DNA from: Candidatus Electrothrix yaqonensis | Lineage (GTDB): Bacteria; Desulfobacterota; Desulfobulbia; Desulfobulbales; Desulfobulbaceae | Assembly: GCA_047651235.1 (NCBI GenBank) | Contig: CP178758.1 | Span: 3,330,001-3,362,000 of the forward strand | DNA: 32,000 nt | Reading direction: 5' to 3' | Shown: positions 11,582-31,087 of the stretch, piece after piece | How the letters are laid out: each line of letters opens with the position of its first letter | Numbering within the stretch: position 1 is the first letter of the stretch | Program-made: the position numbers and the translations under genes | Notes under the pieces: generated by a model | Database searches by the model: none | What the model saw: only the letters and a program-made list of their open reading frames with translations | What the model was told of the DNA's origin: nothing

Positions 11582-11600
11582 TGTCAATTGATCCGCAACA

Positions 11601-11634: not shown

Positions 11635-11700
11635 CTGACTGAAACGGTTCATTGTCCAACTGATATGATCTGTATAACGAAAGATAAAAGGAGGGGAATT

Positions 11701-15569: not shown

Positions 15570-15757
15570 CTACGCCCCCTGCCGCTTTGCCCGCACCCGT
15601 GCCAAATCCTTATAGCATCATCTTAGATAATTCTACTTTGGCACTCACAAAGGCTGTGGTAATAATTTGCAATTCGGTTGTTTCTCATATGCGAAATCAA
15701 TCGAAGCTTGCCTCTTTTCATGCCGTTGACGAAGCTGTCTTATAACTTCATCTTCGT

Positions 15758-16632
15758 TTACATCTCGACGTGGAAAATTGACTTGAGTAATGTTGTTATA
15801 TCAGCGCAACTCAATAACGGGACACCGACTTGATGGTATAATCGTTGCTCGACCATAAACAACATGGCCATCATGACCATAGTCATATGATGATGCCAAG
15901 CCAGCCATCCCCGAGCCTGATAATCACCCATTCCACATTCATTTTTTGCATCCTGAAATGGCCGTTCAACCCAATATCGTTGAGCTTGCATATATGCAAG
16001 TCGTCTTGTTGACGTGTTACTTTCCGCATTACTTAGGCTATATTTAATTTTTTTCGGGGACTTAACCTCACGTCTGACAACTAATTCTACTTTGGTGACC
16101 ATACCATTAACTATTTAATAATATTAATAATACTAAAAACAGGGGTTTTTAAATACTTAATAAAAATAAGCTAGTTATGTTTATGATCGCCAAAGTAGAA
16201 CTACTTGACAGTTGTCGGTTTTACCAAGCTGCCCGCACCATTGACGAGAAACCCCAACAGACATTTTACCCTTTTTGGGTATCCCGGATTCATCAATAAA
16301 AAGAGCGCTATCTTCCTTTCCTCCAAAAATGTTATCCGCATCTTTAGCTACTTGGTTGTTTACAGGACGCCAATCCCAGTTCGAGTCGGAAAGAAAATAC
16401 TGGAGGGGCTCATATTTAACGCCCGGAACCTTTTCCTCCATACGTTCCATGTTTTTTTGTCAGCCTGGAATAAACCTTTCAAGTATTGGAATGCTTTATC
16501 TGACAAACTTACCGTATGTCTCTTAAAAAAATGATGATATCTTTCGTGAAAAGACGTAAGTTGCCGGGCGATGCCGGTCAACTCAAAGAATTTGTCATGG
16601 GGACTTCTTTTTTCGGGGCTGGGAGCGTTCAT
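15758..16632 (-). pseudogene. IS701-like DDE transposase, disrupted
   Basis: There are three fragments. The first two are ORF 16360..16632 (...YHHFFKRHTVSLSDKAFQYLKGLFQADKK) and ORF 16181..16450 (MERMEEKVPGVKYEPLQYFLSDSNWDW...ALFIDESGIPKKGK...GKTDNCQV). They are out of frame at a run of 7 A (complement of 16452-16458), where 8 would restore ...ADKKNMERMEE. The third is ORF 15758..16102 (...YSLSNAE...RYWVERPFQDAKNECGMGDYQARGWLAWHHHMTMVMMA). The segment that should carry the second catalytic Asp is missing. Confidence 0.7.
16084..16201 (+). mobile_element. 118-bp MITE (copy 1) sharing the IS701-like terminal repeats
   Basis: Ends are ATTCTACTTTGGTGACCAT... and ...ATGATCGCCAAAGTAGAAC, with an AT-rich core. 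It is flanked by TA/CTA on both sides (16081-16083 and 16201-16203), consistent with a target duplication. It lies inside the transposase pseudogene. Confidence 0.7.
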
Positions 16633-16840
16633 AAAAAGAATAAAGTTATAATCAGGGCGATTGACGGGTATTTTTTTGATAGCTGTTATCAGGTGCTAGC
16701 TTGATCAAAAAGCGATAAAATTTTCCTAATGAAAGATACAACTTTATCCGGATACTGCAAGAAGTTTTTACAAATAGATCAAAAGGTTATGGTTGCCAAA
16801 GTAGAATCAATCAGACCGTAATAACGGCAATGCGTTGCTT

Positions 16841-16878
16841 AGCCCTGAGTCCTCCCCGGATTCAGGGCTTTTCTTTTT
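16841..16878 (+). terminator. Intrinsic terminator-like hairpin
   Basis: AGCCCTGA (16841-16848) pairs with TCAGGGCT (16862-16869), followed by TTTCTTTTT. No intact plus-strand gene lies upstream, so it is probably a relic of the pre-IS context. Confidence 0.45.
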
Positions 16879-16918: not shown

Positions 16919-16947
16919 TTGACACATATACTTTGGAGCTTTATCAT
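16919..16947 (+). promoter_or_regulatory. Sigma-70-like promoter facing the AAA+ ATPase gene
   Basis: TTGACA (16919-16924), a 17-nt spacer, then TATCAT (16942-16947). It is 88 nt upstream of ATG 17035 and lies outside the left inverted repeat. Confidence 0.45.
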
Positions 16948-16977: not shown

Positions 16978-17069
16978 TGCAGGGCCTCTACAACGGATAC
17001 AACATAATATCTTTCAGCAAGGACGGAATAATCAATGGACTCTGACAGCGGCGGCTTTCTGCCGATCAA
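16978..17069. repeat. Left copy of the 92-bp inverted repeat (junction of 381-aa-like gene end and AAA gene start)
   Basis: Reverse complement of 28318-28409 with 87/92 identity by hand alignment. The perfect 51-bp core is 17004-17054. It encodes an orphan GLYNGYNIISFSKDGIINGL* (16983-17045) overlapping ATG 17035. Confidence 0.85.
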
Positions 17070-19002
17070 ACAGGCTGAACTGGAAGAACAGATCAAAAAG
17101 GCATCCGCCTTTCTCCGGCGGGCTTCCTGGCACCCCAGAGTAAAAAAGGAACGCCTCCGGGAATCAGCCAATGCCCATGAGATCATCAGGAGTATCACCA
17201 ATGCCTCGGCCCAGGAAACGTCCAGCATTGCGGACAAGGCGAAACAACTCAGTGATGACCCGCTGCTGATTTATCATCCGGATGTCGCTTTTTCTATGAA
17301 TGCGGTGCGCAAAGGGATCGCGCTGGGCATGCATACGGCCAACCTGTATTCCAAGGCCTCCAATTTTTATACCCTCAAGGCCCAGCAGGCTGACGGCGCC
17401 CTGAAAAATAATCCCGAAGCCCAGACCGAATTCCGACAGAAGAATATCACCACCTCGGCGGTGCTGCTCTTTGTCACGGCCAATTATATCGTCTCCGCTT
17501 TGAGTGACTACAAAAGCGAAGCTCTGGATTCGATACAGGTCAGTTTTCCCGGTCTGCCCGAAGAACTGCATCTGGCCAATTATATCCATGCCCTCAACTA
17601 TCTGCTGTACTATCACGGCTTTTTTCTCAATGCGGACAACATCCGGACCCCGCTGGATGTTGTCAAACTGACCCAGCTTTATTACCAGGAAGTGCTCAAT
17701 GAGATAGAGTTTATCCGGGATTCCCTCAAGTATACGGAACCCTTTGAGAGCAAGGGCTACAAGCTGGAAGGCGAGGACTTTGTCATTGAAGGATTCACCG
17801 CCCATACCGTGCAGGTGAGTGGCAGCGTGGATTTCAACCGCCTGGAATGGGGAGAGATTGTCGGTAATACCATGTACAAGCACAGCTCAAAACGGACCAT
17901 CCAGTTCCTGATGTGCTATGACGTGGAGCGGAAAAAGAATCCCATCAATGAGCTGGGCGGCTTCCCTGCTGTGACCATGGAGTACGGTCCTGCCGGAACC
18001 GGCAAAAGCATGGGCATCTCCGCGACCGCAACCGAACTTCACGACCGCTGTACGGATCTGGGCATCAAGTTTTTGTATCATCCCATCCCCCAATCGGTTG
18101 TCTCCACCTATCAGGGCGGCAGCAGCGAGAACATGGAAAAATGGTTCCGCTCCGCCACCTCACCGGACATGATTATTTATGCCCCCATTGATGACGGCGA
18201 CGGCAAACTCCGCGACCGGGGCGCACGGGGTACGTCCGCCGGGGTGATTGAGGTGGTGGAGAGCTTTCTGGTCAACACCGAGGGCGCTTCGGCAGCCAAG
18301 CAGGGCAACCGGCTGATCCAGATCTACACCAATCTGCCGGAAACTCTGGATAAAGCCGTGCTGTCCCGCGTGCAGAAACGCTCCCTGCTTGCCGGAGCCA
18401 CCACTGTCGAGGATTTTCTGGATCAGGATTATATCTGGTGGCAGACCTATGAGACTATGGTGCCCGGTTTTGTGGATATGCAGCATCCGGAAGAGTACGA
18501 GTTCATGTCCGCTCAGGAAATTGCCGACCGGATCAGCGAAAAATATGATGAACAGGGCGAAGCTCAGGTCTACAAAATCAAGACGATTATCGAAAAAACC
18601 ATGCAGGAGCACAGTATTGAAGAGCATCTGTTCTTTGCCCGGCTCTTTCATACTATCAAAGCCGAGTTTCCCGGCTTCACTTCACGGGATGTGCGGAACA
18701 TCCAGACTGCCGTCAATACTCGGCTGACGGATTTTGATTTTCCTGCTGAATGGATGAATGATCATGCCTGCTTTTTCGCCGGATCTTATGATGAAAAACT
18801 GAGCATGCTCAAGGAGCTGATGAAGGCGAATATGCAGGGCCTGTCGTTCGCCAGTATCCGCTTTCAGGAGGTGGTCCGGTATCTGGACAATATGGCCATG
18901 ATCGTGGACAAGGATTTTGAAAACAAGGTGGCCCAGCGTATGGAGGAATATCGGGTGGAACAGGAGGCCCGGCGGCGCCTAGCGGAAATAACAGCAGCCT
19001 GA
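17035..19002 (+). CDS. AAA+ ATPase (classical AAA, SpoVK/CbbX/EccA-like) with large helical N-domain and C-terminal extension
   Basis: 655 aa. Walker A: EYGPAGTGKSMG. Walker B region: MIIYAPIDDGDGKL (Asp-Asp instead of Asp-Glu). Sensor-1: IYTNLPETLD. LSRVQKR resembles the SRF-type arginine motif. About 310 aa of helical sequence precede the ATPase and about 200 aa follow it. Confidence 0.85.
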   Translation: MDSDSGGFLPIKQAELEEQIKKASAFLRRASWHPRVKKERLRESANAHEIIRSITNASAQETSSIADKAKQLSDDPLLIYHPDVAFSMNAVRKGIALGMHTANLYSKASNFYTLKAQQADGALKNNPEAQTEFRQKNITTSAVLLFVTANYIVSALSDYKSEALDSIQVSFPGLPEELHLANYIHALNYLLYYHGFFLNADNIRTPLDVVKLTQLYYQEVLNEIEFIRDSLKYTEPFESKGYKLEGEDFVIEGFTAHTVQVSGSVDFNRLEWGEIVGNTMYKHSSKRTIQFLMCYDVERKKNPINELGGFPAVTMEYGPAGTGKSMGISATATELHDRCTDLGIKFLYHPIPQSVVSTYQGGSSENMEKWFRSATSPDMIIYAPIDDGDGKLRDRGARGTSAGVIEVVESFLVNTEGASAAKQGNRLIQIYTNLPETLDKAVLSRVQKRSLLAGATTVEDFLDQDYIWWQTYETMVPGFVDMQHPEEYEFMSAQEIADRISEKYDEQGEAQVYKIKTIIEKTMQEHSIEEHLFFARLFHTIKAEFPGFTSRDVRNIQTAVNTRLTDFDFPAEWMNDHACFFAGSYDEKLSMLKELMKANMQGLSFASIRFQEVVRYLDNMAMIVDKDFENKVAQRMEEYRVEQEARRRLAEITAA

Positions 19003-19089
19003 GATGAAATTGCTCAAGGAAAAAAACTTGCGTTATTAAGGAACAACTCTAATTATCACACGGAACGCGACAAGTTGTAGGAATATCTT

Positions 19090-20154
19090 ATGAAAAAAAA
19101 GAATAAGCACCTCTGTGACTATCTTTATACGGACACCAGAAAGATTCTCTCCGTGTACAGCCAGCTGACCGGGGCGGTTGTTGCCGCCGGAGAATCCGTG
19201 TATACGACGGCCAGTCAGGCGGAGAATAAAAAGAAATACGATTTCAAGATATTCAAGAACGTAAAGAACGATGCTGACGGCAGCACCCAGGATAAGCAGG
19301 GCCTGCAGGAGCAGGTCAGGTCGCACCATACCCTGTTCCGGGAGCTTGAAGAGGAACTGGTGCATCAGGGATATCTGCTCGATTTATCTGGTAAAGAAAT
19401 GGCCAAAAAGATTCAGGACAAGGAATTCAGAAAGACGTTAAAGGATACGTTCTGTGTCAGAGTGACAGGAAGATGCGTCATCGAGCATTACGAGAGGATG
19501 AAAAAAATCTCCGAGTCGTTTCCGAATATCGCCGCGCTCATTAACCAGAGCAATAAAGCAGCGGTGAAAAACACGGAAGCGTATAAAAAACTCGTCGAAC
19601 AAATTAAAACCAAAGAGGCTGAAGTCGCAAGAATCAAAGACAGAAATGCCAGAAATATACAGCAGGCTCCATTAAAAGAACAAAAAAAACGGCTGACAGC
19701 GCTGCTGGAAGAGCAGACCACGGCCGGCATGGTTGAGCAGTGGGTTCTTGACGGCCTGAAAACCTGGATCGATACCTTCATACCGGGAATCATTAATCTG
19801 CGGGTCTATCCGGCGCAGGAGCACATGGATGTACAGGTGTTCGGACATCTGAAGCAGGATAATTTCTTTGACATGGATATCAGCGGATTCCACTTTACCT
19901 ACGGCTCAATCCCGACCGAAGAGATGACGATGATCGGTATTGTTACTTCCGTACCCAACCCGGAGGATGCTGAGTTCAATCCCCATCAGGAATTCCAGGC
20001 CGGTGAGCTGTCGAGCAGGGAAGCTGTGGAGCGCGGCTTCCGTGGTGTCTTCCGGGGATTTGATACCTTTGAACAGATGGTACGCACCTGCAGATATCCG
20101 AGGGTGCTGGTGTATCCCCTGCTGGTGTACCGGCAGATGGGGGCGAAGAAATAA
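19090..20154 (+). CDS. Hypothetical 354-aa protein (no family recognised), downstream partner of the AAA+ ATPase
   Basis: Long ORF with uniform coding character. N-terminus: CDYLYTDTRKILSVYSQLTG. Central Lys/Glu-rich helical segment. C-terminus: ...CRYPRVLVYPLLVYRQMGAKK. A diverged copy of the C-terminus survives at 22353-22439. Confidence 0.7.
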   Translation: MKKKNKHLCDYLYTDTRKILSVYSQLTGAVVAAGESVYTTASQAENKKKYDFKIFKNVKNDADGSTQDKQGLQEQVRSHHTLFRELEEELVHQGYLLDLSGKEMAKKIQDKEFRKTLKDTFCVRVTGRCVIEHYERMKKISESFPNIAALINQSNKAAVKNTEAYKKLVEQIKTKEAEVARIKDRNARNIQQAPLKEQKKRLTALLEEQTTAGMVEQWVLDGLKTWIDTFIPGIINLRVYPAQEHMDVQVFGHLKQDNFFDMDISGFHFTYGSIPTEEMTMIGIVTSVPNPEDAEFNPHQEFQAGELSSREAVERGFRGVFRGFDTFEQMVRTCRYPRVLVYPLLVYRQMGAKK

Positions 20155-20223: not shown

Positions 20224-22167
20224 CTATCCTTCTGTCTTTACGCCCTCTACCTCTCCTACCTCCTCTTCCTGCACCAATCTGCCCTTACACGCCTCCAGAA
20301 TACTTGCCAGCATTTGACTGTAGGACATGTCCTGCAGCGCAGCCATCTTGGCCAGGTGGCCGTCCCAGCACCAGCCCGGATTGGGATTGACTTCCAGCAG
20401 TCGAGGCGTACCGTTGTCGTCCACGCGCCAATCAAAGCGGGCATAATCACGGCACTCCAGGCGTTCAAAGAGCTTGACGCAGCTTGCACCCAGGAAGCGC
20501 TCCACATCTTCGGACAATTCTGCCGGAATGGATGTGATTTTCCAGTACGGTGAATCCGGATTCCATTTGGCCTCGTAGCCGCAGATTCTGGGCAGGTCTT
20601 CAGGCAGGGCTGAATAGTCTTCCTCAATCACGGGCAGTATCATATATGAGCTGCCCGGATTACCGACAATCCCCACGCTGATATCCTTGCCGGTGAGGAA
20701 CTCTTCAACCAGGATGGGATTGTTATACCCGAATTTATCCCGGATCCCGGTCACGGCACTTTCCAGAGTTTCCAGATCATAGCAGACATTGCTCTGGGTA
20801 ATACCGAAGCTGGAGTCCCCGAAATTCGGCTTGACAATCACCGGAAAGGTGAGCGGAAATTCAACAAACTGGATATCCTCCGGTTTGATCATAAACGCAC
20901 CCGGAACCGGGATATCCATTTCCGTGGCAATCCCCCGGATCAGCGACTTGTCGTAGCAGTAGGCCAGGCATTGCGGAGTACCGCCGGAATAATGCATACC
21001 CAGCAGTTCCAGCAGAGCAGCCACATGCAGTTCCTTGGTCGCCTCATTCTGAAAGCCTTCATCACAGAGATTGAACACATAAGTGCATTTCCCCTGGAGC
21101 TTGATCAGATCCTGAAGCAGAGTATCGTGGTTGTACAGATAGGTGAAATTGCAGTTCGGGATCTCTGCCAGGGCCTTTTTCAGCTCATTGATGGTATGGA
21201 AATCGTCGTCATCAAAATTAGCTCCCGGCTTGACCACATCTGTTTTGCCTGGATCGCCCAGCAGAACAACGACTGAGTCGGCTACATCGGGACTTTCACG
21301 GACTGCGGACCATTCTTTGTGGGCTACCCCGGTTATTACCACCCGCCGGGCCATCATACCTAAGTCCTGGTTCCGTTTTGATTCTGCTGCAACCTCTGTG
21401 CAGCTCCGGCAATCCCTGAAACCTGCCTTGGACAGCAACGTGTCAAGCTCCTCTATAGAATAAAGGCGTTCTGCATAGAACTGATCCGCAATCACGCCTT
21501 TGGTCACATGGGTGATCACTTCTCTGGAAACCAGCCGTTCCCGATTTTCTGAGAGCGAACGCTCCCGGCAGACAAAATAATTCTTATCTATCCACTCCCA
21601 GCTGCGGGCATCAAAATGCTCGCGCATATATTCACCGTCCGTGATATCAATGAGCAGTCTGCCGTCGGGCCGCAGAATGCGCATAACCTCTTTCAGAATT
21701 CTGGCATCATCCTTACTGGAGTCAAAATAGCCGAAGCTGTTGCCTGCAATGATCACCGCATGGAATTCATCGGTTGGAAAAGGCAGTTTCCGGGCATCAC
21801 CTTCTTTAAAAAGGACATTCATCCCTTCAGTCCTGCTGACTTTTCTGGCCCGGTTGATCAGGTAATGGGAACGGTCCAGGCCGACAACATTGCTGTACCC
21901 CCTGCGGGCTATCTCCAGGGTATGCCGTCCCTGACCGCAGCAGAGATCCAGGATTTTACTCTCCTTGGGCAGATCAAGGGTATTGAGAAAAATATCCACC
22001 TCTTTTTTAGTGATTTCCTTATCTTCAACCACATCACCGTCGGTACGCAGATAATTGGCATTAAAGAGATGCCGCCACCAGTCAGCCTTGACGTAGCTTT
22101 CCAGGTTATCAACCGGCCCCAGCACCTCAACGATCTTTTTAGTTCTGCTTTTTTTCGGCTTTGCCAT
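20224..22167 (-). CDS. Fusion protein: class I SAM-dependent methyltransferase (N) + D-Ala-D-Ala-ligase-like ATP-grasp ligase (C)
   Basis: ORF 20224..22197. Start at ATG 22167 (MAKPKKSRTKK...) with GAGGGA RBS. MTase motif I: ILDLCCGQGRH. Post-I: VVGLD. ATP-grasp signatures: FPVIVKPNFGDSSFGI, ILVEEFLTGKDISVGIVG, ARFDWRVDDNGTPRLLEVNPNPG. Confidence 0.85.
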   Translation of the reverse strand: MAKPKKSRTKKIVEVLGPVDNLESYVKADWWRHLFNANYLRTDGDVVEDKEITKKEVDIFLNTLDLPKESKILDLCCGQGRHTLEIARRGYSNVVGLDRSHYLINRARKVSRTEGMNVLFKEGDARKLPFPTDEFHAVIIAGNSFGYFDSSKDDARILKEVMRILRPDGRLLIDITDGEYMREHFDARSWEWIDKNYFVCRERSLSENRERLVSREVITHVTKGVIADQFYAERLYSIEELDTLLSKAGFRDCRSCTEVAAESKRNQDLGMMARRVVITGVAHKEWSAVRESPDVADSVVVLLGDPGKTDVVKPGANFDDDDFHTINELKKALAEIPNCNFTYLYNHDTLLQDLIKLQGKCTYVFNLCDEGFQNEATKELHVAALLELLGMHYSGGTPQCLAYCYDKSLIRGIATEMDIPVPGAFMIKPEDIQFVEFPLTFPVIVKPNFGDSSFGITQSNVCYDLETLESAVTGIRDKFGYNNPILVEEFLTGKDISVGIVGNPGSSYMILPVIEEDYSALPEDLPRICGYEAKWNPDSPYWKITSIPAELSEDVERFLGASCVKLFERLECRDYARFDWRVDDNGTPRLLEVNPNPGWCWDGHLAKMAALQDMSYSQMLASILEACKGRLVQEEEVGEVEGVKTEG

Positions 22168-22201
22168 GTTTTTTGTCCCTCTGCGCCTGTTGCGCAAAAA
22201 A

Positions 22202-22352: not shown

Positions 22353-22439
22353 ATTTTTCAAGGACAGAATAGTGGGTACCTGCAGACCTACAGATACCCG
22401 AAGGCGCTGGTGTCTCCACTGCTGATGTATCACCTGATG
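22353..22439 (+). pseudogene. C-terminal remnant of a paralogue of the 354-aa gene
   Basis: IFQGQNSGYLQTYRYPKALVSPLLMYHLM compares with VFRGFDTFEQMVRTCRYPRVLVYPLLVYRQM at 20050-20142. Nucleotide similarity is roughly 80 percent over the last ~50 nt by eye. There is no upstream coding continuation. Confidence 0.5.
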
Positions 22440-22558
22440 TGTCAGGTCGTCTTTCCTGTTTTTCCTTGACTTTTCTGTTTCAGGGTGTTCTGTTCCGGGC
22501 ATCCGATAAAAACGGGTTGAGCGGAATTTATATCAAAACAACTGAAAGGAATTTGGCG

Positions 22559-23335
22559 ATGCGACATAGAATACGCTTTCCAAAAAGAGATACAGAAACT
22601 CTTGGACAGGATGAAATATTTTTTTATTTGATGAATCCATCCGGCAGCGAAAAAATTCGTTTCCATGATTATGACCTTATTTACAGCAGACCGAATTTAT
22701 ATGAACAGCTGTTTTATGAACGGCTTCAGTGTCAGTCGCCGATAAAGGTAACGGAAATTCTGGAACATGCTCTTAATCAGTCAGAGCATAATCTCAGCGA
22801 ACTGAGAGTGCTGGATTTCGGCGCCGGAAACGGTATGATGGGAGAGACGTTAAAAAATCAGGGCGTTGCGAGGCTGATCGGTGTGGACATCATCCCGGAA
22901 GCCAGGGAAGCAACGGAAAGAGACAGGCCGGGGATATACGATGCATACTATGTTGCTGATTTCTGCAATCCTGATGAAGAACTTCATGAGGAAATAGCCT
23001 CATGGATGCCGGACTGCCTGACAACAGTGGCTGCCCTCGGATTCGGAGATATTCCGCCTCAGGCCTTTTTCAGAGCGTTTAATCTTATCCGGAGCAAAGG
23101 CTGGGTGGCGTTCAATATCAAAGAGACGTTTTTAAGTCACTCTGATACTTCGGGGTTTTCCCGCATGATCCGCGAGCTGATGTTTTCGGAATATTTTCAT
23201 GTCTACCATATGGAGCGGTACCGCCACAGGATGTCGATGGACGGCAAGCCCTTGTACTATTTCGGAGTTGCAGGAAGAAAGAACGCTCACATCCCCGATA
23301 CGTTCTTATCGGAATATAATCTCCACGGCTGTTGA
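22559..23335 (+). CDS. Class I SAM-dependent methyltransferase
   Basis: ORF 22439..23335. Start at ATG 22559 (MRHRIRFPKRDTE...) with AAAGGA RBS. Motif I: VLDFGAGNGMMG. Post-I: LIGVDI. N-terminal segment: IRFHDYDLIYSRPNLYEQLFYERLQCQSP. Confidence 0.8.
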   Translation: MRHRIRFPKRDTETLGQDEIFFYLMNPSGSEKIRFHDYDLIYSRPNLYEQLFYERLQCQSPIKVTEILEHALNQSEHNLSELRVLDFGAGNGMMGETLKNQGVARLIGVDIIPEAREATERDRPGIYDAYYVADFCNPDEELHEEIASWMPDCLTTVAALGFGDIPPQAFFRAFNLIRSKGWVAFNIKETFLSHSDTSGFSRMIRELMFSEYFHVYHMERYRHRMSMDGKPLYYFGVAGRKNAHIPDTFLSEYNLHGC

Positions 23336-23477: not shown

Positions 23478-23730
23478 ACTGCGCTGTCTACCAGCAAAAT
23501 CCATCGCTCAAAGACACAGGCCGATCTTTTTTTGTCCTGCAGATCTGCCGCGTTCTGCAACTGCAGGACAGAACAATGAACCGGCGGCCCGCAGTTCGTT
23601 CAGAACCCGAATATTCCTTGATGTTACCCGGTGACGGTGTAAATATACATCTGTGCCGAATACAGTAAAGCGGTACCTCAGGGGGAGGGCGGGGTGACGC
23701 CCGGTCGGGAGGGTGAAGCGGAGGGGATTG

Positions 23731-24310
23731 ATGGAACTGGAACTGCTCGGACAGATCTGGCAATGGATTGCGGAGGCTGAAGCATGGGAATGGGTGTTCA
23801 GCGGGGTCGGGCTGCCGATAGCCGGATGGCTTATCCTGCGTTACCGAAGAAAGCCCCCTGCTCCGCAGGACACCGCCCCGCCGGTCAGTAACACCTTTAC
23901 CAGCAGCGGCAGTGGTGATCAGAACATTGCACAGGGCGATCATCCCATCGGCAAGCAGGTTAACCTCAATGCGGAAGAGATCACCTCACCGCAGCAGGAG
24001 GCAACGGGCCACCACAACGTCTTCAGCCAGACCGGCGATGTCCGTTATGAGGAACATCACCACCACTACGCCCGCACCGAACAGGGTATCCCTTTGCAGC
24101 GGCCCAGGCAGGCCGAGCATCTTGTGGGCAGGGAGAAACTGCTCAAGGAAGTACTGGCCGCGCTCCGGCCCGGCAGGGCGGTAACGCTCTGCGGACCCGG
24201 CGGCATCGACAAGACCGCGCTGGCCTCCAGGGTTGCCTGGGAGCTGAGTCCTGACGGCCAGCCCCCTGCCCTGTTCCCGGACGGCCTGATCTTCTACTTG
24301 TCGCGTCCCG
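23731..24310 (+). pseudogene. N-terminal stump of a membrane-anchored STAND (NB-ARC-type) NTPase, truncated by IS insertion
   Basis: MELELLGQIWQW...GVGLPIAGWLILRY is a TM helix. It is followed by a low-complexity linker, then LVGREKLLKEVLAAL..GRAVTLCGPGGIDKTALASRVA (Walker A). The reading frame runs into the IS end (TGTGA at 24311) and stops there. Confidence 0.65.
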
Positions 24311-25405
24311 TGTGATAATATACCTGCGAGAAGTTGGCCCTTGTTTCTTGCCCGTGAACGTATAACCGTTCTTTTATCAGAACATAAACTGCCCGGTTTA
24401 TCATCATGAATATCGCACTGCACAAAAGAGCGCGTACAACCCCGGCTGTCCGCCGGGAAATTCAGCGCTCAGAACTTTCCGAACGTAAGTTGTCGGAAAA
24501 ATACGGCATCAGCAGAAGTACGGTCCGGAAATGGAAATACCGTGATACCGCCGACGATTTTTCGCACAGGCCGCATAATCTGCACGCGACGCTCACGGAT
24601 CCGGAAGAAGCCGTGGTTGTTGAGCTGCGCAGAACGCTCCTTCTTCCGATTGACGATCTCCTTGTTGTTGTGCGTGAATTCATCTGTCCGCATATGTCGC
24701 GCTCCGCCCTTGACCGCTGCCTGCGGCGGCACGGAGTCTCAAATCTGAAAGAGCTGATCCCGGCGGAGGAAAACGAAGAGAACCGTCCGAAAACATTTAA
24801 AGATTACGAACCTGGTTTTGTGCATGCCGATATAAAATATCTCCCGCGGATGCCGGACGAAACGGAGCGGAAATATCTTTTTGTCGGCATCGACAGGGCC
24901 ACCCGGTGGGTGTACATGGAGATCCGGGCTTCGAAAACTGCGGAATCCGCCCGCTCTTTTCTGAATAATCTCATTGGGAAGGCCCCGTTCATGATCTCAA
25001 AAATTCTCACCGACAACGGGAAGGAGTTCACCGACCGTTTCTGCCCGTCCGGAGAGCGTGAACCGACCGGAAATCACGTATTTGATCGGAAATGCGGGGA
25101 GAACGGCATTGAGCACCGTCTGATAAAACCGCGCAGACCGCAGACAAACGGCATGGTCGAGCGCTTCAACGGCAGAAGTAAAGAAGTTGTTCAGCAGACA
25201 AAGTTTGAATCGTCCCGTCAGCTTAAGGAAATACTGCTGCAGTATCTCCGTATTTACAATCACCATATTCCGCAGAAAAATCCCGGTCATATCACGCCGG
25301 TTGAGGCTCTGAAAAATTGGCGGAAAACGCATCCCGATTTATTTAAAAAACAGGTATACAATCAGTCGGGGCTTGACACGTATGTAGTAAAGTGACTTGT
25401 TCACA
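24311..25405 (+). mobile_element. IS481-family insertion sequence (apparently intact)
   Basis: Ends are TGTGA... (24311) and ...TCACA (25405), enclosing a complete transposase gene. The boundaries are approximate and I could not identify a target duplication. Confidence 0.7.
24406..25395 (+). CDS. IS481-family transposase (HTH + rve integrase core)
   Basis: 329 aa. N-terminal HTH: LSEKYGISRSTVRKWKYR. DDE core: FVHADIKYL...LFVGIDRATRW...ILTDNGKEF...RPQTNGMVERFN. Confidence 0.9.
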   Translation: MNIALHKRARTTPAVRREIQRSELSERKLSEKYGISRSTVRKWKYRDTADDFSHRPHNLHATLTDPEEAVVVELRRTLLLPIDDLLVVVREFICPHMSRSALDRCLRRHGVSNLKELIPAEENEENRPKTFKDYEPGFVHADIKYLPRMPDETERKYLFVGIDRATRWVYMEIRASKTAESARSFLNNLIGKAPFMISKILTDNGKEFTDRFCPSGEREPTGNHVFDRKCGENGIEHRLIKPRRPQTNGMVERFNGRSKEVVQQTKFESSRQLKEILLQYLRIYNHHIPQKNPGHITPVEALKNWRKTHPDLFKKQVYNQSGLDTYVVK

Positions 25406-25644: not shown

Positions 25645-26070
25645 TTATATACCCTGTCGTGGCGGCGGGGAAATACCGCAGCTTGAATCGCTAAGTTCTC
25701 GGAAAAGGGTCCCCTCCGATCTGGATGAAACTGTGTAAGTTTCGGTTAGGCTACATAGAATATTATTTCCCGAGTCAACTGCCTGTATTTGAAAATCTAT
25801 TGGTCCCGTAGGTATATTCTGGATGGTACATGAATAGGTAATAGCGGAAGAATCGAAAGTCATGGGAATGCTTGTGCCGTAAAAAACTTGCCTATGGGTT
25901 AAAGAGAACTTTACGGTACTGATAGCGATTGCACCCGAGAAGTTGTCGACTGTCACGGTTATGGTGACATCCTGTCCACCACTGCTGTGAGGAGGAGAAT
26001 CTACACTACCACAGGACGAACATTGTAAGGCTGCTATTGCAGCCATAATAAACACAAAAGTTATTCGCAT
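25645..26070 (-). CDS. Small secreted protein or lipoprotein, beta-sandwich-like
   Basis: ORF 25645..26130. Start at ATG 26070 (MRITFVFIMAAIAALQCSSCGS). It has a signal peptide with a non-canonical lipobox-like LQC, followed by alternating beta-strand pattern. It is the last gene of the AT-rich cluster. Confidence 0.55.
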   Translation of the reverse strand: MRITFVFIMAAIAALQCSSCGSVDSPPHSSGGQDVTITVTVDNFSGAIAISTVKFSLTHRQVFYGTSIPMTFDSSAITYSCTIQNIPTGPIDFQIQAVDSGNNILCSLTETYTVSSRSEGTLFRELSDSSCGISPPPRQGI

Positions 26071-26151
26071 CGTCGTTTTCTCTCTATTAGGGCAGCAAGA
26101 ATGCTTTGCTATTGACCAAAGCATTCCCATGGTACAGTCACTTTGACCAAA

Positions 26152-27153
26152 TTATTCATCCTCTTGTTCGTAGGTTTCGGTGTTGGCCAAGTCCATAGAT
26201 TCGTCATTGGGCATCACCGGTACATCTGAAAGAATCTTGTAGTTCGCTTTCGGATTCTTCAACACAGGGATAATCCAATCGCCATCATAGGACGTTCCGT
26301 CGTACTGCGCAACCTCTCCCAATGTAAAGAGTGCCGGTTCAATCGTTGTCCCGTCATCATATAAAATATACCTCGCATCGGTAACATTGAGACTGTCAAC
26401 AAGATCTTTTTTCGACTTTTTGTAGTGACGAGTGAGCATCTCCTTGACTTGTTTTTTGACCTGTGTTTCAGATAGATAATCGTTCGCATCAAATTTCAGA
26501 TTCTTCGACATCTTGGTCCATTTTTTGATGAGTCCGGCAAGTTCACCATCCTCGCCAAGAGTGACGACCATGCGTGAGTGACCAACAACTGGAACATCCT
26601 TTATGCGACGGTCATAATATACGGTGACCAGTTTCTTGTAGTCCTGAGAAGTCCCGTCTTCACTATTGTACACTGCTTTATTCACACCGCCCACATGCGC
26701 AAGCTTAAGTTCGCTACGGATTGATCCTTTGAGGATGCCCAGGTCGGCCATATGCTTTTTGGCAATCCGCACCGCTTCGTTCTTTCCTGGCAGGTTGCTG
26801 GTATCTCCATCACCTTCGTACTTCTTGGTTCCCTTGTTGAAAACAACATCATCGCCTTCCAAGGCAAGGTATCCCGCTGGGTCGTTCTCGACGCTAAAAA
26901 GCTGCTCGGATGCACCTGTCTTAGAGTTATTTTCGGATAGAGTGACATCGGTATAGGAGCTTATTCTTTCAGCCCAGCCTTTTGTTTTTTTTTGTTTGGA
27001 GGATTCTTGTTCGAGCATATACTCAAACCCTCCTCCGTCCTGGTGTAGACCGTTCTCAACGTCAATCTGCATATTATCGACATTCACCTCTTGAGCATGA
27101 ACATTCGCCACGCACATGGTGGCTATTGCGGCAAACGTAATGATAGCTTTCAT
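26152..27153 (-). CDS. Secreted 333-aa protein of unknown function
   Basis: Signal peptide MKAIITFAAIATMCVANVHAQE with AAAGGAG RBS. Lys/Asp-rich body. The segment NEAVRIAKKHMADLGIL resembles propeptide/PepSY-type helices (weak). Confidence 0.65.
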   Translation of the reverse strand: MKAIITFAAIATMCVANVHAQEVNVDNMQIDVENGLHQDGGGFEYMLEQESSKQKKTKGWAERISSYTDVTLSENNSKTGASEQLFSVENDPAGYLALEGDDVVFNKGTKKYEGDGDTSNLPGKNEAVRIAKKHMADLGILKGSIRSELKLAHVGGVNKAVYNSEDGTSQDYKKLVTVYYDRRIKDVPVVGHSRMVVTLGEDGELAGLIKKWTKMSKNLKFDANDYLSETQVKKQVKEMLTRHYKKSKKDLVDSLNVTDARYILYDDGTTIEPALFTLGEVAQYDGTSYDGDWIIPVLKNPKANYKILSDVPVMPNDESMDLANTETYEQEDE

Positions 27154-27181
27154 TGTTTTCTCCTTTCTGGATTTTTTTGGA

Positions 27182-27919
27182 TTAGTACTGGTACCAATTA
27201 ACTAGGTAGCTTGGGTTCGGCTCATCAGGGGCATGAGAATACTTGTAGCGATCATTTTGTACACCTGGAGTCATCACGGCAGAACCGAACTCAGCAAGTT
27301 TTTCCCACCACCAGAAACCGGTGTGATAACCTTCGGCGTTGATAGCATCGAACCACGACTGCCAAACTAAATTGTTACCAGCCATTCGTGCGCCAAAGTA
27401 GTTAGAGATGTCGTCTGCGGTGGAGATTACCGCATTGGTTCTGAATCCAAGAGCTTGATGGAGTCCGTCGAAGATACCGGTAGATGATTGCCAAGGTGAC
27501 CACCAGTCACTTCTTTCCAGAGAGCTGGGGATTGTCTGACATGAGTGAAAAACGATGAACTCTGTGTCGTTATCTCCATAGCCACCATTGGATGACCAGC
27601 CAACATTTCCCAAGTTGATATACGTAGATGCACCGCTTCCTGCACCATTGGAATAGACCCCGATGAGGTACTGGTTTCCATGACCACAGTAGTAGGCGAA
27701 ATCCACGCTGTCGACAAAGCCGTTGTTGGCCAACGTAAACATGGGCTCGCTCGCCCAATAGTATTGCTCATAATCAAAATGCTTGATGAAGTTGTAGACA
27801 ACTCCGGGGGTTGCAGGATCGTTGCCACAGTACCCTCCTTCTTCCCACGCCAGAGCATGAGCCGTGGACGACATAGTCAACAACAGGCCAGCGGTCATAA
27901 GAATGGATGTATTTCGCAT
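27182..27919 (-). CDS. Secreted 245-aa protein with clan-CD-peptidase-like His/Cys arrangement
   Basis: Signal peptide MRNTSILMTAGLLLTMSSTAHA. A hydrophobic strand then His-Gly (VDFAYYCGHGN), followed by a second hydrophobic strand ending in Cys (TEFIVFHSCQT). This order (His before Cys, each after a beta-strand) is that of caspase/gingipain/legumain-type enzymes. Trp/Tyr-rich C-terminus. Confidence 0.6.
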   Translation of the reverse strand: MRNTSILMTAGLLLTMSSTAHALAWEEGGYCGNDPATPGVVYNFIKHFDYEQYYWASEPMFTLANNGFVDSVDFAYYCGHGNQYLIGVYSNGAGSGASTYINLGNVGWSSNGGYGDNDTEFIVFHSCQTIPSSLERSDWWSPWQSSTGIFDGLHQALGFRTNAVISTADDISNYFGARMAGNNLVWQSWFDAINAEGYHTGFWWWEKLAEFGSAVMTPGVQNDRYKYSHAPDEPNPSYLVNWYQY

Positions 27920-27960
27920 AGTTTTCCCCTTCTATGAATAAATATTTGTATTTGATACTA

Positions 27961-28078
27961 TTTCTACTTTGGCGATCATAAACATAACTATCTTATTTTT
28001 ATTAAGTATTTAAAAACCCCTGTTTTTAGCATTATTAATATTATTAAATAGTTAATGGTATGGTCACCAAAGTAGAAC
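27961..28078 (-). mobile_element. 118-bp MITE (copy 2), inverted relative to copy 1
   Basis: Reverse complement of 16084-16201 with only a few mismatches (e.g. CTATCTT vs CTAGCTT, TAGCATT vs TAGTATT). It is flanked by TA/CTA (27958-27960 and 28078-28080) and sits 42 nt upstream of the 245-aa gene start. Confidence 0.7.
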
Positions 28079-28304
28079 TATTCTTGACTCATTATGGAGT
28101 GCTCTACATTTTTGGATCACCTCCTCTTATCTCTACAGTCGTAAGTTCTCTGGTGACTTGCATTGCAGGATTTAGGTTGAAACTTACAGGGGGGGTAACC
28201 TTCCTGTTAATAAAAAAGTATTTATATCAGCATGATCGGTAACAATTGTTATTCCCGTGCAAGGTTAAAACCCCTATAGAATTTGATTGCATAATCTCAA
28301 TAAA

Positions 28305-28352
28305 CTACAGGGTCATCTTGATCGGCAGAAATCCGCCGCTGTCAGAGTCCAT
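28305..28352 (-). pseudogene. Orphan 5' end of the AAA+ ATPase gene
   Basis: ATGGACTCTGACAGCGGCGGATTTCTGCCGATCAAG... gives MDSDSGGFLPIK, then MTL and a stop. The first 12 codons encode the same peptide as 17035-17070. It overlaps the 381-aa gene stop by 11 nt. Confidence 0.6.
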
Positions 28353-28409
28353 TGATTATTCCGTCCTTGCTGAAAGATATTATCTTGTATCCTTTGTAGA
28401 AGCCATGCA
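28318..28409. repeat. Right copy of the 92-bp inverted repeat
   Basis: Reverse complement of 16978-17069. The perfect core is 28333-28383. It contains the true 3' end of the 381-aa gene. Confidence 0.85.
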
Positions 28410-29487
28410 CATGCTGATGCAGCTTATAGGGCATAATCGCTATCTTGCGGATAAGGGAGGCCTTCTGTGCTTCCAGTTCGTTGAAAACCGAATATTCATC
28501 AACATCGGTTGGCTTTGGAATATAAAAGCGTTCCCTGACCCGCTCTCCGGTTAAAATATTGCCGAGCGCCTGCTGATCCTTGATCACAGTCTGTCCGGCG
28601 GAAAAGACAAACTGCTCGGTCAGATGAAAGACAAATTTTCTCCCCTCATCTCCTGCTGCGAACAGCTGTTCTGTTTCTTCCGGCAGATTGACGGAAAAGG
28701 ACTGGGAATAGATCGGGCCGATGCAGATACGCTTGAGCATCTTGGGGTGAACAGATTCAAGCCGCTGGTCAATCGCCATAGCCACAATACCTACTGCCGG
28801 GGCCCGTGCGCCCTCCGAACGGATAACCTCCATGAAGCGGTCAAAAGCCTCCTGTTTTTTTTGACGCAGGGGTGGCTCGTCTCTGTCCTGCTTAAAATCA
28901 AGCAGATAAATATAGGGTCTGTTGCTTAGCTTATCGTAGCAGGCCCAGTAATACAGATACCGTCTTTTCTTTCTGTCTCCTGTCTGCAGGGGGATCAGCT
29001 GTCCCTCATTAAAAAAGAGAAAAAGGTTTTCCCGGATCAGCCCCCTGCGGTAGACATTATCCGCCATCCTGGCCAGCAGTTCTTCAGGTTCTTTGCGCTT
29101 TTCCAGAAGAGAGGAGAGGATCTGCTCTTTCAGTTCCTGCCCTTTATCTTCAGGAGCCTGTTCATTCTGCCGTAAAAGATCGGTTTCAAGCTGGGCGATT
29201 TCATAAAAATTGACAAAGCCGGAGTCGCTTTTGTCGATTTTCAGGCTGTCCGAAGAATTGAAGAGATATTTAATCCGGAGAAGGTCAAAAGTATAGGAGA
29301 GTTTTCTGAGGAAGGTCAGGACAATATCATGCTCTGTCACGGCCTCCTGTTCCCTCTCCTTTTTTAACGCATAGAGCTGTTCAACCGCCTTGAATGCTGT
29401 CAGGGTCTTGGTCATGTACTTGACATGCTCCTCCCGTTGCTCCAGGGCAACCAGATCATGGAGTGAGTACTCATCCCAGTTCAACAT
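28342..29487 (-). CDS. Hypothetical 381-aa protein (no family recognised)
   Basis: Long ORF 27 nt downstream of the 455-aa gene. Helical N-half. The C-half has RRYLYYWACYDKLSNRPYIYLLDF and ends GFYKGYKIISFSKDGIINGL. No TM segments or signal peptide are apparent. Confidence 0.7.
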   Translation of the reverse strand: MLNWDEYSLHDLVALEQREEHVKYMTKTLTAFKAVEQLYALKKEREQEAVTEHDIVLTFLRKLSYTFDLLRIKYLFNSSDSLKIDKSDSGFVNFYEIAQLETDLLRQNEQAPEDKGQELKEQILSSLLEKRKEPEELLARMADNVYRRGLIRENLFLFFNEGQLIPLQTGDRKKRRYLYYWACYDKLSNRPYIYLLDFKQDRDEPPLRQKKQEAFDRFMEVIRSEGARAPAVGIVAMAIDQRLESVHPKMLKRICIGPIYSQSFSVNLPEETEQLFAAGDEGRKFVFHLTEQFVFSAGQTVIKDQQALGNILTGERVRERFYIPKPTDVDEYSVFNELEAQKASLIRKIAIMPYKLHQHVHGFYKGYKIISFSKDGIINGL

Positions 29488-29514
29488 GTCGGCAACAGCT
29501 TCTTAGATAAAAAA

Positions 29515-30882
29515 TTAGGCAAAAAGATTCTCGTCATGATCAACCGATGCTGCTGCACCGGAACCGCCTGCTCCGGCAGAGCTGCTGCCGTCTTCCCTGT
29601 AAGTGAATTCAGAAGCGCTCAGGGGATCAATACCGTAATTGCGGATCATCTCCTCGCGCAGCTCGGCTTCATCCTCGCTCAGATCCGCCGCGTGTTTGGC
29701 CAGGGCCTGGGCAACATTGGCCCGCCGGCGGATCTGTTCCGGAGTCAGCTTCATCTTTTCGATATAGGCAGTGTCGGAAGCAACGATGATTTTGGCCACA
29801 TTCTCCATCTGGCGGGCATTTTTCTCGTCCGTCATGGTGTCCACATTCTGGGCGATTTCCTGATCCGCTGCCGCCTTGAGCATTTCCAGATAGGACTGAT
29901 CCTTGACCAGATCCTCCTGCAGCTTGGATTTCAGGGTGGCAATCCACATCTGATGATTGCTGAGCAGCTTCTGCTGAGCCTCCTGGTGGGCTTCATGCTC
30001 CTGAATGGATTTTGTCTTTTCATCCAGAACAGCCTGCACAACCTTGAGTTTCCCCCGATTCTCCTGCAATTCGGCCCGGAGCTTGGAAACCTTGGCAAGC
30101 TGGGCCGTATGTTCGGCTGAACCGGTCTCAAAGGAATCAATCGCCAGTTCTTCGTTCTGCACCTCGCTTTCCATCTGCTCCACGATTTCCACCAGCTTAG
30201 TGGCCCGTTCCGATGCCTCGTTTTTGATCTCGAATGCCTTTTCTTTCCGCGCTTTGATCGCCTCCAGCTGGTTGCGGATGCTGGAAGTCCGCTCCGTCAT
30301 AATATCAATGGTCTTCTGGCCCATAACCTGGACAACATTCAGGGTCTGTTCAATATCAGCGGACATGAGCCGTTCCCGTTTCATGGTTTCCGCCTTTCTT
30401 TTGGAATTCACCATCAGGTGCTCCGCATCCCGCATATTCTCTTCCGCAGCTTTAACCTTACCTTCCTTGCCCCAGCCGAGGCCCAGAAATCCCGTATAGG
30501 CATTGGCCTCTTCAAGAACTTTCTGCGCCTGTTCAAAAGCGGTCTGCGCATCACTGACCAGTTTTTTCTCTTCGTCAGAATCTTCAACCAAGGATTGAAA
30601 TTCTTTATCCATACCGTCGATTAAGACTTTCATCCCGTAGACGGCCTTGGCCATGTCCTTCTCATCGCTCTGGATGGCCTGACGGATCGTATTGATCTTG
30701 GAGGCCAGAATCTCTTCCCGTTTTGCTCGTTCTTTTTCGTCCGAGATCTTTGAAATTTCCTCATGCTCTCTGTCCAACTCCGCCAATCTGGAGACCACAT
30801 CCACCGGGCCTTTGGCCATATTGTTTAAATTTGAGGTGGTGTTGTCCACCAGACTGGCAAACAGGTCTTGACTCTGCGACAT
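29515..30882 (-). CDS. 455-aa all-helical/coiled-coil protein (no family assigned)
   Basis: GGAGGA RBS. Lys/Glu/Gln-rich heptad-like sequence runs throughout. One Gly/hydrophobic break (AYTGFLGLGWGKEG). Disordered Ser/Gly/Ala tail. It is the first gene of the minus-strand unit. Confidence 0.7.
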   Translation of the reverse strand: MSQSQDLFASLVDNTTSNLNNMAKGPVDVVSRLAELDREHEEISKISDEKERAKREEILASKINTIRQAIQSDEKDMAKAVYGMKVLIDGMDKEFQSLVEDSDEEKKLVSDAQTAFEQAQKVLEEANAYTGFLGLGWGKEGKVKAAEENMRDAEHLMVNSKRKAETMKRERLMSADIEQTLNVVQVMGQKTIDIMTERTSSIRNQLEAIKARKEKAFEIKNEASERATKLVEIVEQMESEVQNEELAIDSFETGSAEHTAQLAKVSKLRAELQENRGKLKVVQAVLDEKTKSIQEHEAHQEAQQKLLSNHQMWIATLKSKLQEDLVKDQSYLEMLKAAADQEIAQNVDTMTDEKNARQMENVAKIIVASDTAYIEKMKLTPEQIRRRANVAQALAKHAADLSEDEAELREEMIRNYGIDPLSASEFTYREDGSSSAGAGGSGAAASVDHDENLFA

Positions 30883-30936
30883 GGTTCAATCCTCCGGAAA
30901 AAAATTATGACGAAATTGAGTACGGACGCACTCACT

Positions 30937-30952
30937 TGCAATTCTGTATCCA
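30937..30952 (-). promoter_or_regulatory. Sigma-54 (-24/-12) promoter candidate for the 455-aa gene
   Basis: The minus strand reads TGGATACAGAATTGCA. This gives GG and GC with the canonical 10-nt spacing of TGGCAC-N5-TTGCA. It is about 55 nt upstream of ATG 30882. Confidence 0.45.
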
Positions 30953-31045
30953 TTTAATTAATGGAAATGAACCGGATACGCAAGAGAATTCAACAGCAGG
31001 GGTACGGATGACTCTGCAACTGGCCGGACCACGGAATACGCATTT

Positions 31046-31087
31046 GACATTGTTTGACACAGTGACAGCGCGTTTTCACACAATGTC
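31046..31087. promoter_or_regulatory. Inverted repeat, possible upstream activator site
   Basis: GACATTGT (31046-31053) and ACAATGTC (31080-31087) flank 26 nt. The extended arms are GACATTGTTTGACA / TTTCACACAATGTC. It lies 95-135 bp upstream of the sigma-54-like element and also upstream of the divergent cyclase gene. Confidence 0.3.

Follow-up and report, generated by a model that had tools for sequence, protein, structure and literature searches.

Two tightly spaced genes of Candidatus Electrothrix yaqonensis, encoding a long helical protein of 455 amino acids (aa) and a soluble protein of 381 aa, raise the questions of which system they belong to and how they are transcribed. They lie on the minus strand of a 32,000-nucleotide (nt) stretch of contig CP178758.1 (positions 3,330,001 to 3,362,000; GenBank assembly GCA_047651235.1), which was analysed as a whole and is called the window here. 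A previous model-made interpretation, the sequence-only reading, had placed the pair behind a sigma-54-type promoter as in psp stress operons, had suggested an analogy with PspA/ESCRT-III proteins and their Vps4-like ATPases, and had regarded the pair as the other half of a module with an AAA+ ATPase. It was found that the two genes very probably represent genes 1 and 2 of a conserved, uncharacterised six-gene module.

The gene pair and its source genome

The two minus-strand open reading frames (ORFs) were found at 29515–30882 (gene 1, 455 aa) and 28342–29487 (gene 2, 381 aa) with a gap of 27 nt, exactly at the coordinates that the sequence-only reading had given. Gene 1 (XOF33431.1, ACL93V_15745) matched exactly, and gene 2 (ACL93V_15740) with 100% identity, a protein of Candidatus Electrothrix (yaqonensis) sp. 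YB6, the source strain. YB6 is a cable bacterium whose genome of 3,738,687 bp was closed with Nanopore and Illumina reads (PMC12093952). Both genes are under strong purifying selection, the ratio of nonsynonymous to synonymous substitution rates (dN/dS) being 0.05–0.15 against four orthologues, including the closest one (dS of ∼0.5). For gene 1 the ratio was 0.05–0.09, and the range of 0.05–0.15 covered all three module genes of the window, i.e. genes 1 and 2 and an AAA ATPase gene.

Homologues were few in a word-indexed search of 5.8 billion proteins (27 for the 455-aa protein and 33 for the 381-aa protein). Scans of both proteins against Pfam, NCBIfam, PADLOC and PHROGs gave nothing specific, the only hits being a Rad50 coiled-coil match and a DruC match, both marginal. 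No match for either protein was obtained in the PDB by single-sequence or family-profile searches, and a Pfam scan of every member of both families at E ≤ 1 revealed no consistent family.

The pair heads a six-gene module found in at least five phyla

The genomic neighbourhoods of the homologues were more informative. Genes 1 and 2 are directly followed by an orthologue of the AAA ATPase in at least 11 loci from five phyla, and wherever long contigs exist, the pair and the ATPase head the same operon. The order of this operon is helical protein, 381-aa protein, AAA ATPase (∼650 aa, PF00004), DUF6638 protein (PF20343, ∼416 aa), a membrane protein of ∼200 aa and a membrane protein of ∼520–590 aa. 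Gene 5 encodes 3–4 predicted transmembrane helices and an acidic cytoplasmic tail, and gene 6 N-terminal transmembrane helices and a large C-terminal domain; transmembrane helices were predicted in both products at most loci. The helical protein keeps a length of 438–478 aa across the operons.

The full six-gene order was observed in Desulfopila sp. IMCC35008 (locus L001), three other Desulfobulbales-like contigs, a GC-rich metagenomic contig, a gammaproteobacterial metagenome-assembled genome (MAG; L018) and one MAG of Ca. Buchananbacteria, a member of the candidate phyla radiation (CPR; L020); the loci concerned are L001, L002, L003/4, L005, L018 and L020. Five of the six genes were detected in a second Ca. 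Buchananbacteria MAG (L017), and the first four, in the same order, in MAGs of Trueperaceae (L019) and Polaribacter (L021). The module thus occurs in Desulfobacterota, Gammaproteobacteria, Patescibacteria (CPR), Deinococcota and Bacteroidota, the last two with the first four genes. DUF6638 homologues are common in Flavobacteriaceae (Winogradskyella, Seonamhaeicola, Psychroserpens and Croceibacter) and occur in Ca. Sungbacteria as well, and the DUF6638 proteins from Electrothrix, Flavobacteriaceae and CPR are encoded by the fourth gene of the same operon. In other genomes the module is flanked by ordinary genes of metabolism or stress and not by defence islands. An HSP20 gene is also found near the module in Desulfopila (L001, 5597–6085), as in the window, which is probably a coincidence.

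In intact operons the stop codon of gene 2 overlaps the start codon of the AAA gene (ATCAATGGACTCTGA), which implies translational coupling of genes 2 and 3. In the window, genes 1 and 2 are adjacent and in order, and the AAA orthologue is present though displaced and inverted. The proposal that the pair belongs with an AAA+ ATPase was therefore borne out by the recurrence of the ATPase gene directly behind the pair.

DUF6638 is the only curated family besides the AAA domain that marks the module; Pfam lists it as of unknown function, and a full-text literature search returned no paper mentioning it. Apart from this label, genes 4, 5 and 6 had no solved or curated relatives. The PDB searches with genes 4 and 6 were empty, and the gene 6 family, with each member scanned at E ≤ 1, showed no consistent Pfam family.

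The operon was split within Electrothrix and rearranged in YB6

The AAA gene of the window lies at 17035–19002 on the plus strand (655 aa, XOF33423.1). The junction between genes 2 and 3 is duplicated in the window as two inverted 92-nt copies, which are 95% identical, 11.2 kb apart and mark both breakpoints. The right arm (28318–28409, minus strand) consists of the last 68 nt of gene 2 and a 24-nt remnant of AAA codons 4–12. The left arm (16978–17069, plus strand; 95% complementary to the right arm) consists of a gene 2 remnant (its last ∼19 codons), after which the AAA gene begins at its true start. This duplication proves that genes 2 and 3 were formerly adjacent.

The breakpoints of the window, together with the same flanking insert sequence, were found at the loci L007, L013 and L015, from E. 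gigas (L015), E. aarhusensis and another MAG. The insert of E. gigas is 5.1 kb long, on the same strand, and contains BrnT toxin genes; that of E. aarhusensis is 1.2 kb long. The junction is intact in the Electrothrix MAG L012. The shared breakpoints and this intact junction indicate that the split is an old insertion common to some members of the genus. YB6 shows an additional inversion of the side with the AAA gene, as judged from the arrangement of the arms. An assembly artefact was considered as the source of the inversion and rejected, since the genome was closed with both read types and independent Electrothrix assemblies show the junction duplicated in the same way. By the split and the inversion, genes 1 and 2 have become a transcription unit of their own. 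As a shared feature, the 92-nt duplication of the junction provides a clean marker of operon fragmentation in Electrothrix evolution.

The displaced AAA gene is preceded by a strong terminator (16841–16869; 12-bp stem and T run) and by a near-consensus sigma-70 promoter at 16919–16947 on the plus strand (TTGACA and TATCAT spaced by 17 nt, 11 of 12 matches). This promoter was supplied by the inserted sequence, and it is conserved in three species, being found upstream of the AAA gene in E. gigas and E. aarhusensis as well. A palindromic element resembling a miniature inverted-repeat transposable element (MITE) lies between gene 2 and the next gene (27959–28080), with a second copy at 16074–16211. 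The copies (122 nt, 97% identity between them) are each themselves an inverted repeat and are located near both breakpoints.

The other end of the AAA gene is also altered. A solo copy of a terminal inverted repeat of the IS481 family (19052–19080; 29 nt, 90% identical to 24291–24319) is found 50 nt past the AAA stop codon, where the DUF6638 gene should start. No DUF6638 gene and no gene for the ∼200-aa (p198) or ∼520-aa (p517) membrane protein was found by tblastn in the window, the locus thus holding an incomplete module. These observations suggest that YB6 has lost DUF6638; an IS481-associated break would have removed it, together with the two membrane genes, from behind the AAA gene.

It was also observed that the 92-nt arms hold the 3′ end of gene 2 and the 5′ end of the AAA gene in intact form, so that recombination between them would flip the 11.2-kb segment. 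Such a flip could in principle rejoin the transcription units of gene 2 and the AAA gene and act as a reversible switch.

The partner ATPase belongs to the classic AAA clade

The AAA protein of the window shares 76% identity with the gene 3 product of the Desulfopila operon and 88% with its counterpart from an intact Electrothrix operon, and it matched PF00004 with an E value of 3.6e-10. Its closest solved or curated relatives were the D2 domain of Cdc48 (E of 2e-8), spastin, Vps4/CdvC and PEX6, which places it in the classic clade of AAA ATPases. The Walker A motif (GxxGTGK), pore loop 1 (S-T-[Y/F]-Q-G), the TN of sensor 1 and the SR arginine finger were conserved in 11 AAA sequences from five phyla. 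With these features the protein looks like a substrate-engaging hexameric ATPase and a working translocase, possibly with slow or regulated hydrolysis. The AAA domain was the only Pfam match in the protein; its N-terminal region of ∼300 residues matched no family, MIT included.

The first product is a long helical bundle with a hydrophobic hairpin tip

The 455-aa protein was modelled with AlphaFold2 on 24 homologues, and the model was helical throughout residues 2–416 (pLDDT of 75, pTM of 0.49). The sequence-only reading had described it as almost entirely heptad-like helix. The helical character was upheld, but a clear heptad (3.5-residue) hydrophobic periodicity was seen only in residues ∼43–147 and ∼190–252, and it was not present in residues 253–357, the most conserved part of the protein. 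Because the periodicity is confined to two stretches, the protein is helical without being almost entirely heptad, and the term long helical bundle suits it better than that of a single continuous coiled coil.

The Gly-rich hydrophobic break GFLGLGWG, which had been pointed out before, was confirmed. It comprises residues 130–137 (codons at 30472–30495, minus strand; alignment A1), and in the model it forms the loop joining helices 103–128 and 139–174. In distant homologues the corresponding loop is likewise short and aromatic or hydrophobic (WNLFG, WFF, MALFG or GFFAR), indicating that the character of a hairpin tip, not its sequence, is retained; the hydrophobic stretch is 8 residues long. 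The predicted disordered tail was recovered too, as residues 422–455 (29518–29619, minus strand) with pLDDT below 50. It is preceded by an invariant NYGIDPxxxSxF motif, with G417, I418, D419, P420, S424 and F426 invariant in alignment A1, and it ends in a recurrent acidic [DE]xNLF tip, most members terminating in NLF, LF or VF. Sequences of the Electrothrix/Desulfopila clade hardly differ in the C-terminal half of the protein. No N-terminal signal sequence was found in the translation.

A Foldseek search of the PDB with the model gave no match at E ≤ 0.001, the best E value being 0.013. The top 50 matches were generic long-helix proteins, namely axonemal coiled coils, F-BAR proteins, Rad50 and chemoreceptors, plus pore formers of the ClyA family.

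The 381-aa protein resembles no family, with a weak T-fold lead

No motif had been recognised in the 381-aa protein by the sequence-only reading, and the searches agreed, giving no family or fold match. Its family comprised 378 clusters at 50% identity in a profile search, all of them single-domain proteins of ∼340–415 aa. The AlphaFold2 model (pLDDT of 73.5, pTM of 0.76) showed an N-terminal helical part and an alpha/beta domain at residues ∼164–296 with the order beta-beta-alpha-alpha-beta-beta. It had no significant Foldseek match in the PDB or among viral structures (BFVD). Weak matches to T-fold proteins were obtained (GTP cyclohydrolase I, DHNA and QueF-like; E values of 0.2–1, probability up to 0.63). 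Cys183, Asp185, Glu225, Arg228, Asp240, Arg253 and Cys255 are invariant in the family. The order of strands and helices in the model and these invariant residues are consistent with a T-fold likeness, which may be taken as a lead, not a finding.

The upstream region points to a conserved sigma-70-type block

The sigma-54-type promoter claimed by the sequence-only reading was examined in detail. The motif TGGATACAGAATTGCA (30937–30952, minus strand) lies ∼55 nt upstream of the gene 1 ATG and upstream of a GGAGG ribosome-binding site. It contains TGG and TTGCA, and its GG-N10-GC spacing is exact as had been said. However, TGG-N8-TTGCW was found twice in the window, compared with 2.85 occurrences expected from shuffled sequences. 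The −24 hexamer of the site has 3 mismatches to TGGCAC, which leaves it outside the 14 sites of the window that lie within 2 mismatches of the full sigma-54 consensus (18.9 expected). The genuine pspA promoter of E. coli reads TTGGCACGCAAATTGT; the CAC is missing from the window motif. The other TGG-N8-TTGCW match, TGGTATAATCGTTGCT (15834–15849, plus strand), lies inside a degraded insertion sequence (IS), which illustrates how such matches arise by chance in the window.

The motif was not conserved either. The closest orthologue (L008; 95% protein identity and a well aligned intergenic region) reads AATGAATACTGTTTTATA at the motif position and AATGAATACTGTTTTATATATGAG across the motif stretch, where GG has become GA and TTGCA has become TTATA, so that both GG and GC are lost. 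The sigma-54 GG and GC are unique to the window among 7 aligned Electrothrix loci, and the motif was absent upstream of the orthologues in L001 (Desulfopila), L002, L003 and L011–L015. Moreover, no sigma-54 activator domain (PF00158) was found among the 20 large ORFs of the window that were scanned. The sigma-54 promoter was therefore rejected with fairly high confidence, the motif being most probably a chance match.

A different block is conserved in this region. At 30955–30983 (minus strand) a −35-like TTGCGT (30978–30983) is followed by an AT-rich stretch, and CTTGC.TA (A or G at the variable site) and TT.ATTT..ATT are invariant across the 7 Electrothrix loci (alignment A4). This candidate sigma-70-type promoter was detected only through the comparative alignment. 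Genes 1 and 2 are most likely read from this TTGC(G/A)T block, not from a sigma-54 promoter.

The distal inverted repeat noted by the sequence-only reading does exist as a 12-nt pair with 1 mismatch and an 18-nt spacer (31046–31057 and 31076–31087), but it is absent from the closest relative, L008. It sits in a divergent intergenic region shared with a plus-strand gene for a class-III-cyclase-like membrane protein. As a separate observation, E. gigas AU1_5 (L015) has ∼7 copies of an ∼8-nt tandem unit (GCTGTATA / GCCGTATA) upstream of gene 1 at ∼8525–8590, between the −35-like block and the ribosome-binding site. The array, which is absent from the other Electrothrix loci, could be a phase-variable spacer.

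A membrane-associated assembly and its alternatives

Taken as a whole, the observations are best explained, with somewhat better than even confidence, by the pair encoding subunits 1 and 2 of a split AAA module that is read by sigma-70 in YB6 and forms a membrane-associated assembly. Such a complex was proposed on the basis of the constant gene order, the coupling of genes 2 and 3, the two membrane products, the hairpin tip, the near-invariant C-terminal half of the helical protein and its NYGIDP motif and tail. The six products would form an assembly at the membrane, in which the helical protein would be a scaffold or client that is engaged and remodelled by the hexameric ATPase. The helical protein would contact the membrane or the transmembrane partners with its hydrophobic hairpin tip, and it would probably dock through its invariant NYGIDP…F motif and acidic LF tail. 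The 381-aa and DUF6638 proteins might serve as adaptors or enzymes, and the products of genes 5 and 6 as membrane anchor or output. This mechanistic picture of an AAA-driven assembly is tentative. A more specific form of it, in which the operon encodes a membrane-remodelling or complex-assembly machine that is an independent functional analogue of ESCRT-III/Vps4, the helical protein docking or polymerising at the membrane by way of its hairpin tip and the ATPase recycling it via the C-terminal motif and tail, is possible but somewhat more doubtful still. Such a machine would range from CPR bacteria to Flavobacteriia and cable bacteria.

Several observations weigh against this explanation. The mechanism was drawn from architecture alone, and no homology that would indicate function was detected for five of the six proteins. 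In all 11 AAA sequences the Walker B motif is hhhhDD, not DE, so hydrolysis may be slow or regulated. No YB6 protein was present among the 110 DUF6638 hits or the 12 Electrothrix clusters examined; if the loss of DUF6638 is real, genes 1–3 either work without the rest or belong to a module that is being dismantled. On the side of transcription, the candidate −10 hexamer is weak in the window (TAATTA), a sigma-70 consensus scan called no site upstream of gene 1, and YB6 may have newly gained a sigma-54 promoter of its own.

The main rival is an anti-phage or inter-genomic conflict system with the AAA protein as sensor or motor and the helical and membrane proteins as membrane-damaging effectors. 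It would account for the patchy distribution over distant phyla and for the repeated invasion of the Electrothrix operon by toxin-antitoxin genes (BrnT, HepT/MNT) and IS/MITE elements, and the window carries a caspase-NACHT-TPR protein of the STAND type and a DUF6414 gene. The weak, non-significant ClyA-family matches of the helical model would also fit. PADLOC, however, had no match for the AAA protein, the 381-aa protein or the neighbours, and for the helical protein only a marginal one to DruC (E of 0.0086, with no stretch passing). The flanking genes elsewhere are ordinary, the sequences are unusually conserved (a near-identical C-terminal half in the Electrothrix/Desulfopila clade, dN/dS of ∼0.05), and within Electrothrix and Desulfopila they have diverged about as much as vertical inheritance would predict. 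A defence role was accordingly judged unlikely. The ClyA-family matches also bear on the idea of a ClyA/Hbl/YaxAB-like toxin, an alpha-helical pore former that is secreted or inserts into membranes and has accessory proteins, which the long helical-bundle model with its short hydrophobic tip might recall. Foldseek listed SmhB, AhlC, ClyA, PaxB, YaxA and MakA, but at non-significant E values of 0.09–0.43 and template-modelling scores of 0.14–0.46, interleaved with axonemal, F-BAR and Rad50 coiled coils. Considering that the hydrophobic stretch has 8 residues of variable sequence, that there is no signal peptide and that the helical protein is always coupled to a cytoplasmic AAA ATPase, a toxin is highly improbable.

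A sigma-54-dependent, psp-like envelope-stress operon, with a PspA/ESCRT-III analogue and an enhancer-binding protein acting at the inverted repeat, would make sense of the spaced GG and GC with TGG and TTGCA upstream of the ATG, of the 12-nt inverted repeat ∼95–135 nt further upstream and of a partner ATPase of the Vps4/Cdc48 clade. For this single region of ∼330 nt the chance expectation of the motif is only ∼0.015 (arithmetic from the shuffle count). Against this stand its chance frequency in the window (2 vs 2.85), the 3 mismatches in the −24 hexamer, its loss in L008 and absence from Desulfopila, L002, L003 and other Electrothrix loci, the lack of PF00158 among the large window ORFs scanned and the lack of PspA, Snf7 or TelA similarity; the psp-like architecture is thus quite improbable. 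Alternatively, the operon could have been dismantled in YB6, leaving the pair to decay without a function. Two breaks in the operon lie within the window, neither DUF6638 nor the genes for the two membrane proteins turned up there or among the DUF6638 hits and clusters checked, and several Electrothrix genomes have genes 1 and 2 without an adjacent AAA gene. Yet the ORFs are intact, dN/dS stays at 0.05–0.10 even against the closest relative (dS of ∼0.5), the split between genes 2 and 3 is old and common to several species in which all three genes are intact, and the AAA gene has gained a conserved strong promoter. Decay is therefore very unlikely. The split module with a membrane-associated assembly was retained as the preferred explanation, and the annotation is corrected accordingly: two 'hypothetical' genes and a distant 'AAA family ATPase' make up one former operon, not a sigma-54/psp stress unit.

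Other features of the window

Downstream of gene 2, at 25645–27919 on the minus strand, are genes for a DUF6345 protein (245 aa, with a signal peptide), a 333-aa secreted protein and a 161-aa lipoprotein-like protein with an Ig domain. These three genes are unrelated to the module and were placed beside gene 2 by rearrangement; between gene 2 and the DUF6345 gene the minus strand showed no terminator-like site. The window also holds an IS481-family element (24295–25382), which encodes a 329-aa DDE transposase and has imperfect terminal inverted repeats of 32 nt (24295–24326 and 25351–25382). Directly before it is a 200-aa P-loop fragment (GPGGIDKT; 23713–24315), apparently from an NTPase of the STAND/NACHT type that was truncated.

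The next gene after the AAA gene, on the far side of the solo IS481 repeat, encodes a DUF6414 protein (19090–20154, plus strand); it takes the place that DUF6638 has in intact operons but is unrelated to it. It is followed by a gene for a 657-aa protein (20224–22197, minus strand), in which an S-adenosylmethionine methyltransferase is fused to an ATP-grasp domain of the D-Ala-D-Ala-ligase type, and by a second methyltransferase gene (22439–23335, plus strand). These methyltransferase and ATP-grasp genes inside the inverted segment are possibly a small cassette for the modification of peptides or metabolites.

The degraded IS at 15628–16807, a region of low GC content (0.39), contains minus-strand fragments of an IS4/IS701-like transposase (114, 89 and 90 aa), repeated terminal repeats of the TTCTACTTTGG type and, nested in it, the palindromic MITE-like element at 16074–16211. 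Two tandem HSP20 genes (143 and 187 aa) lie at 11150–12141 on the plus strand. At 6506–10153 on the minus strand a 1215-aa protein is encoded with caspase (Peptidase_C14), NB-ARC/NACHT and TPR parts in a STAND-type architecture, which is typical of bacterial cell-death or conflict systems. No Rfam match was obtained in the whole window.

Comparison with known systems

The sequence-only reading had seen no PspA or TelA sequence similarity in the 455-aa protein and had nevertheless raised a PspA/ESCRT-III likeness. The former statement held, whereas the latter did not. None of 24 family members matched PspA_IM30 (PF04012), Snf7 (PF03357) or TelA (PF05816) in Pfam, even at E ≤ 1, and alignment of the helical-family profile with E. 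coli PspA by hhalign gave a probability of 0.34%. No PspA, Vipp1, ESCRT-III or TelA entry was present among the best 50 Foldseek matches in the PDB, and no TelA in the PDB profile search. The ESCRT-III fold (alpha1-alpha2/3 hairpin, alpha4-alpha5 elbow, ∼220 aa) was also tried on the 455-aa protein and was not found there.

With PspA/PspF the module shares a helical protein tied to an AAA+ protein and a possible membrane context. PspF, however, is a sigma-54 activator (PF00158), whereas the module ATPase belongs to PF00004 and has no DNA-binding or sigma-54 domain. The part seen of a published survey of PSP- and ESCRT-type contexts describes other AAA+ associations and nothing like the module (PMC11237479). 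With the ClyA family the helical protein has in common an elongated helical bundle and a hydrophobic tip on a helical hairpin. It differs in that its tip is 8 residues long instead of a membrane-spanning tongue, that it has no secretion signal, and that its operon encodes a cytoplasmic AAA ATPase and DUF6638 in place of toxin components.

The module matched no characterised system tested and is apparently a new kind of system. Five of its six products have no known function and, besides the DUF6638 placeholder, no curated family or solved relative. The conserved combination of a long helical protein, a Vps4/Cdc48-type ATPase and a pair of membrane proteins could represent a new class of bacterial membrane or envelope machinery, and as the module occurs in cultivable marine flavobacteria, it may be directly testable there. 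ESCRT-III/Vps4 (CdvB/CdvC) differs from it in several respects: the module protein is twice the size of an ESCRT-III subunit and has no Snf7/PspA similarity in sequence or fold, its ATPase has DD instead of DE in Walker B and no MIT match in the N-terminal region, and its four further conserved partners are without an ESCRT counterpart. Both nevertheless combine a soluble helical-hairpin protein with a flexible C-terminal tail and an adjacent classic-clade AAA ATPase, here together with operonic membrane proteins. By analogy, the assembly may work like helical-polymer/AAA pairs such as ESCRT-III/Vps4 without being a member of their family.

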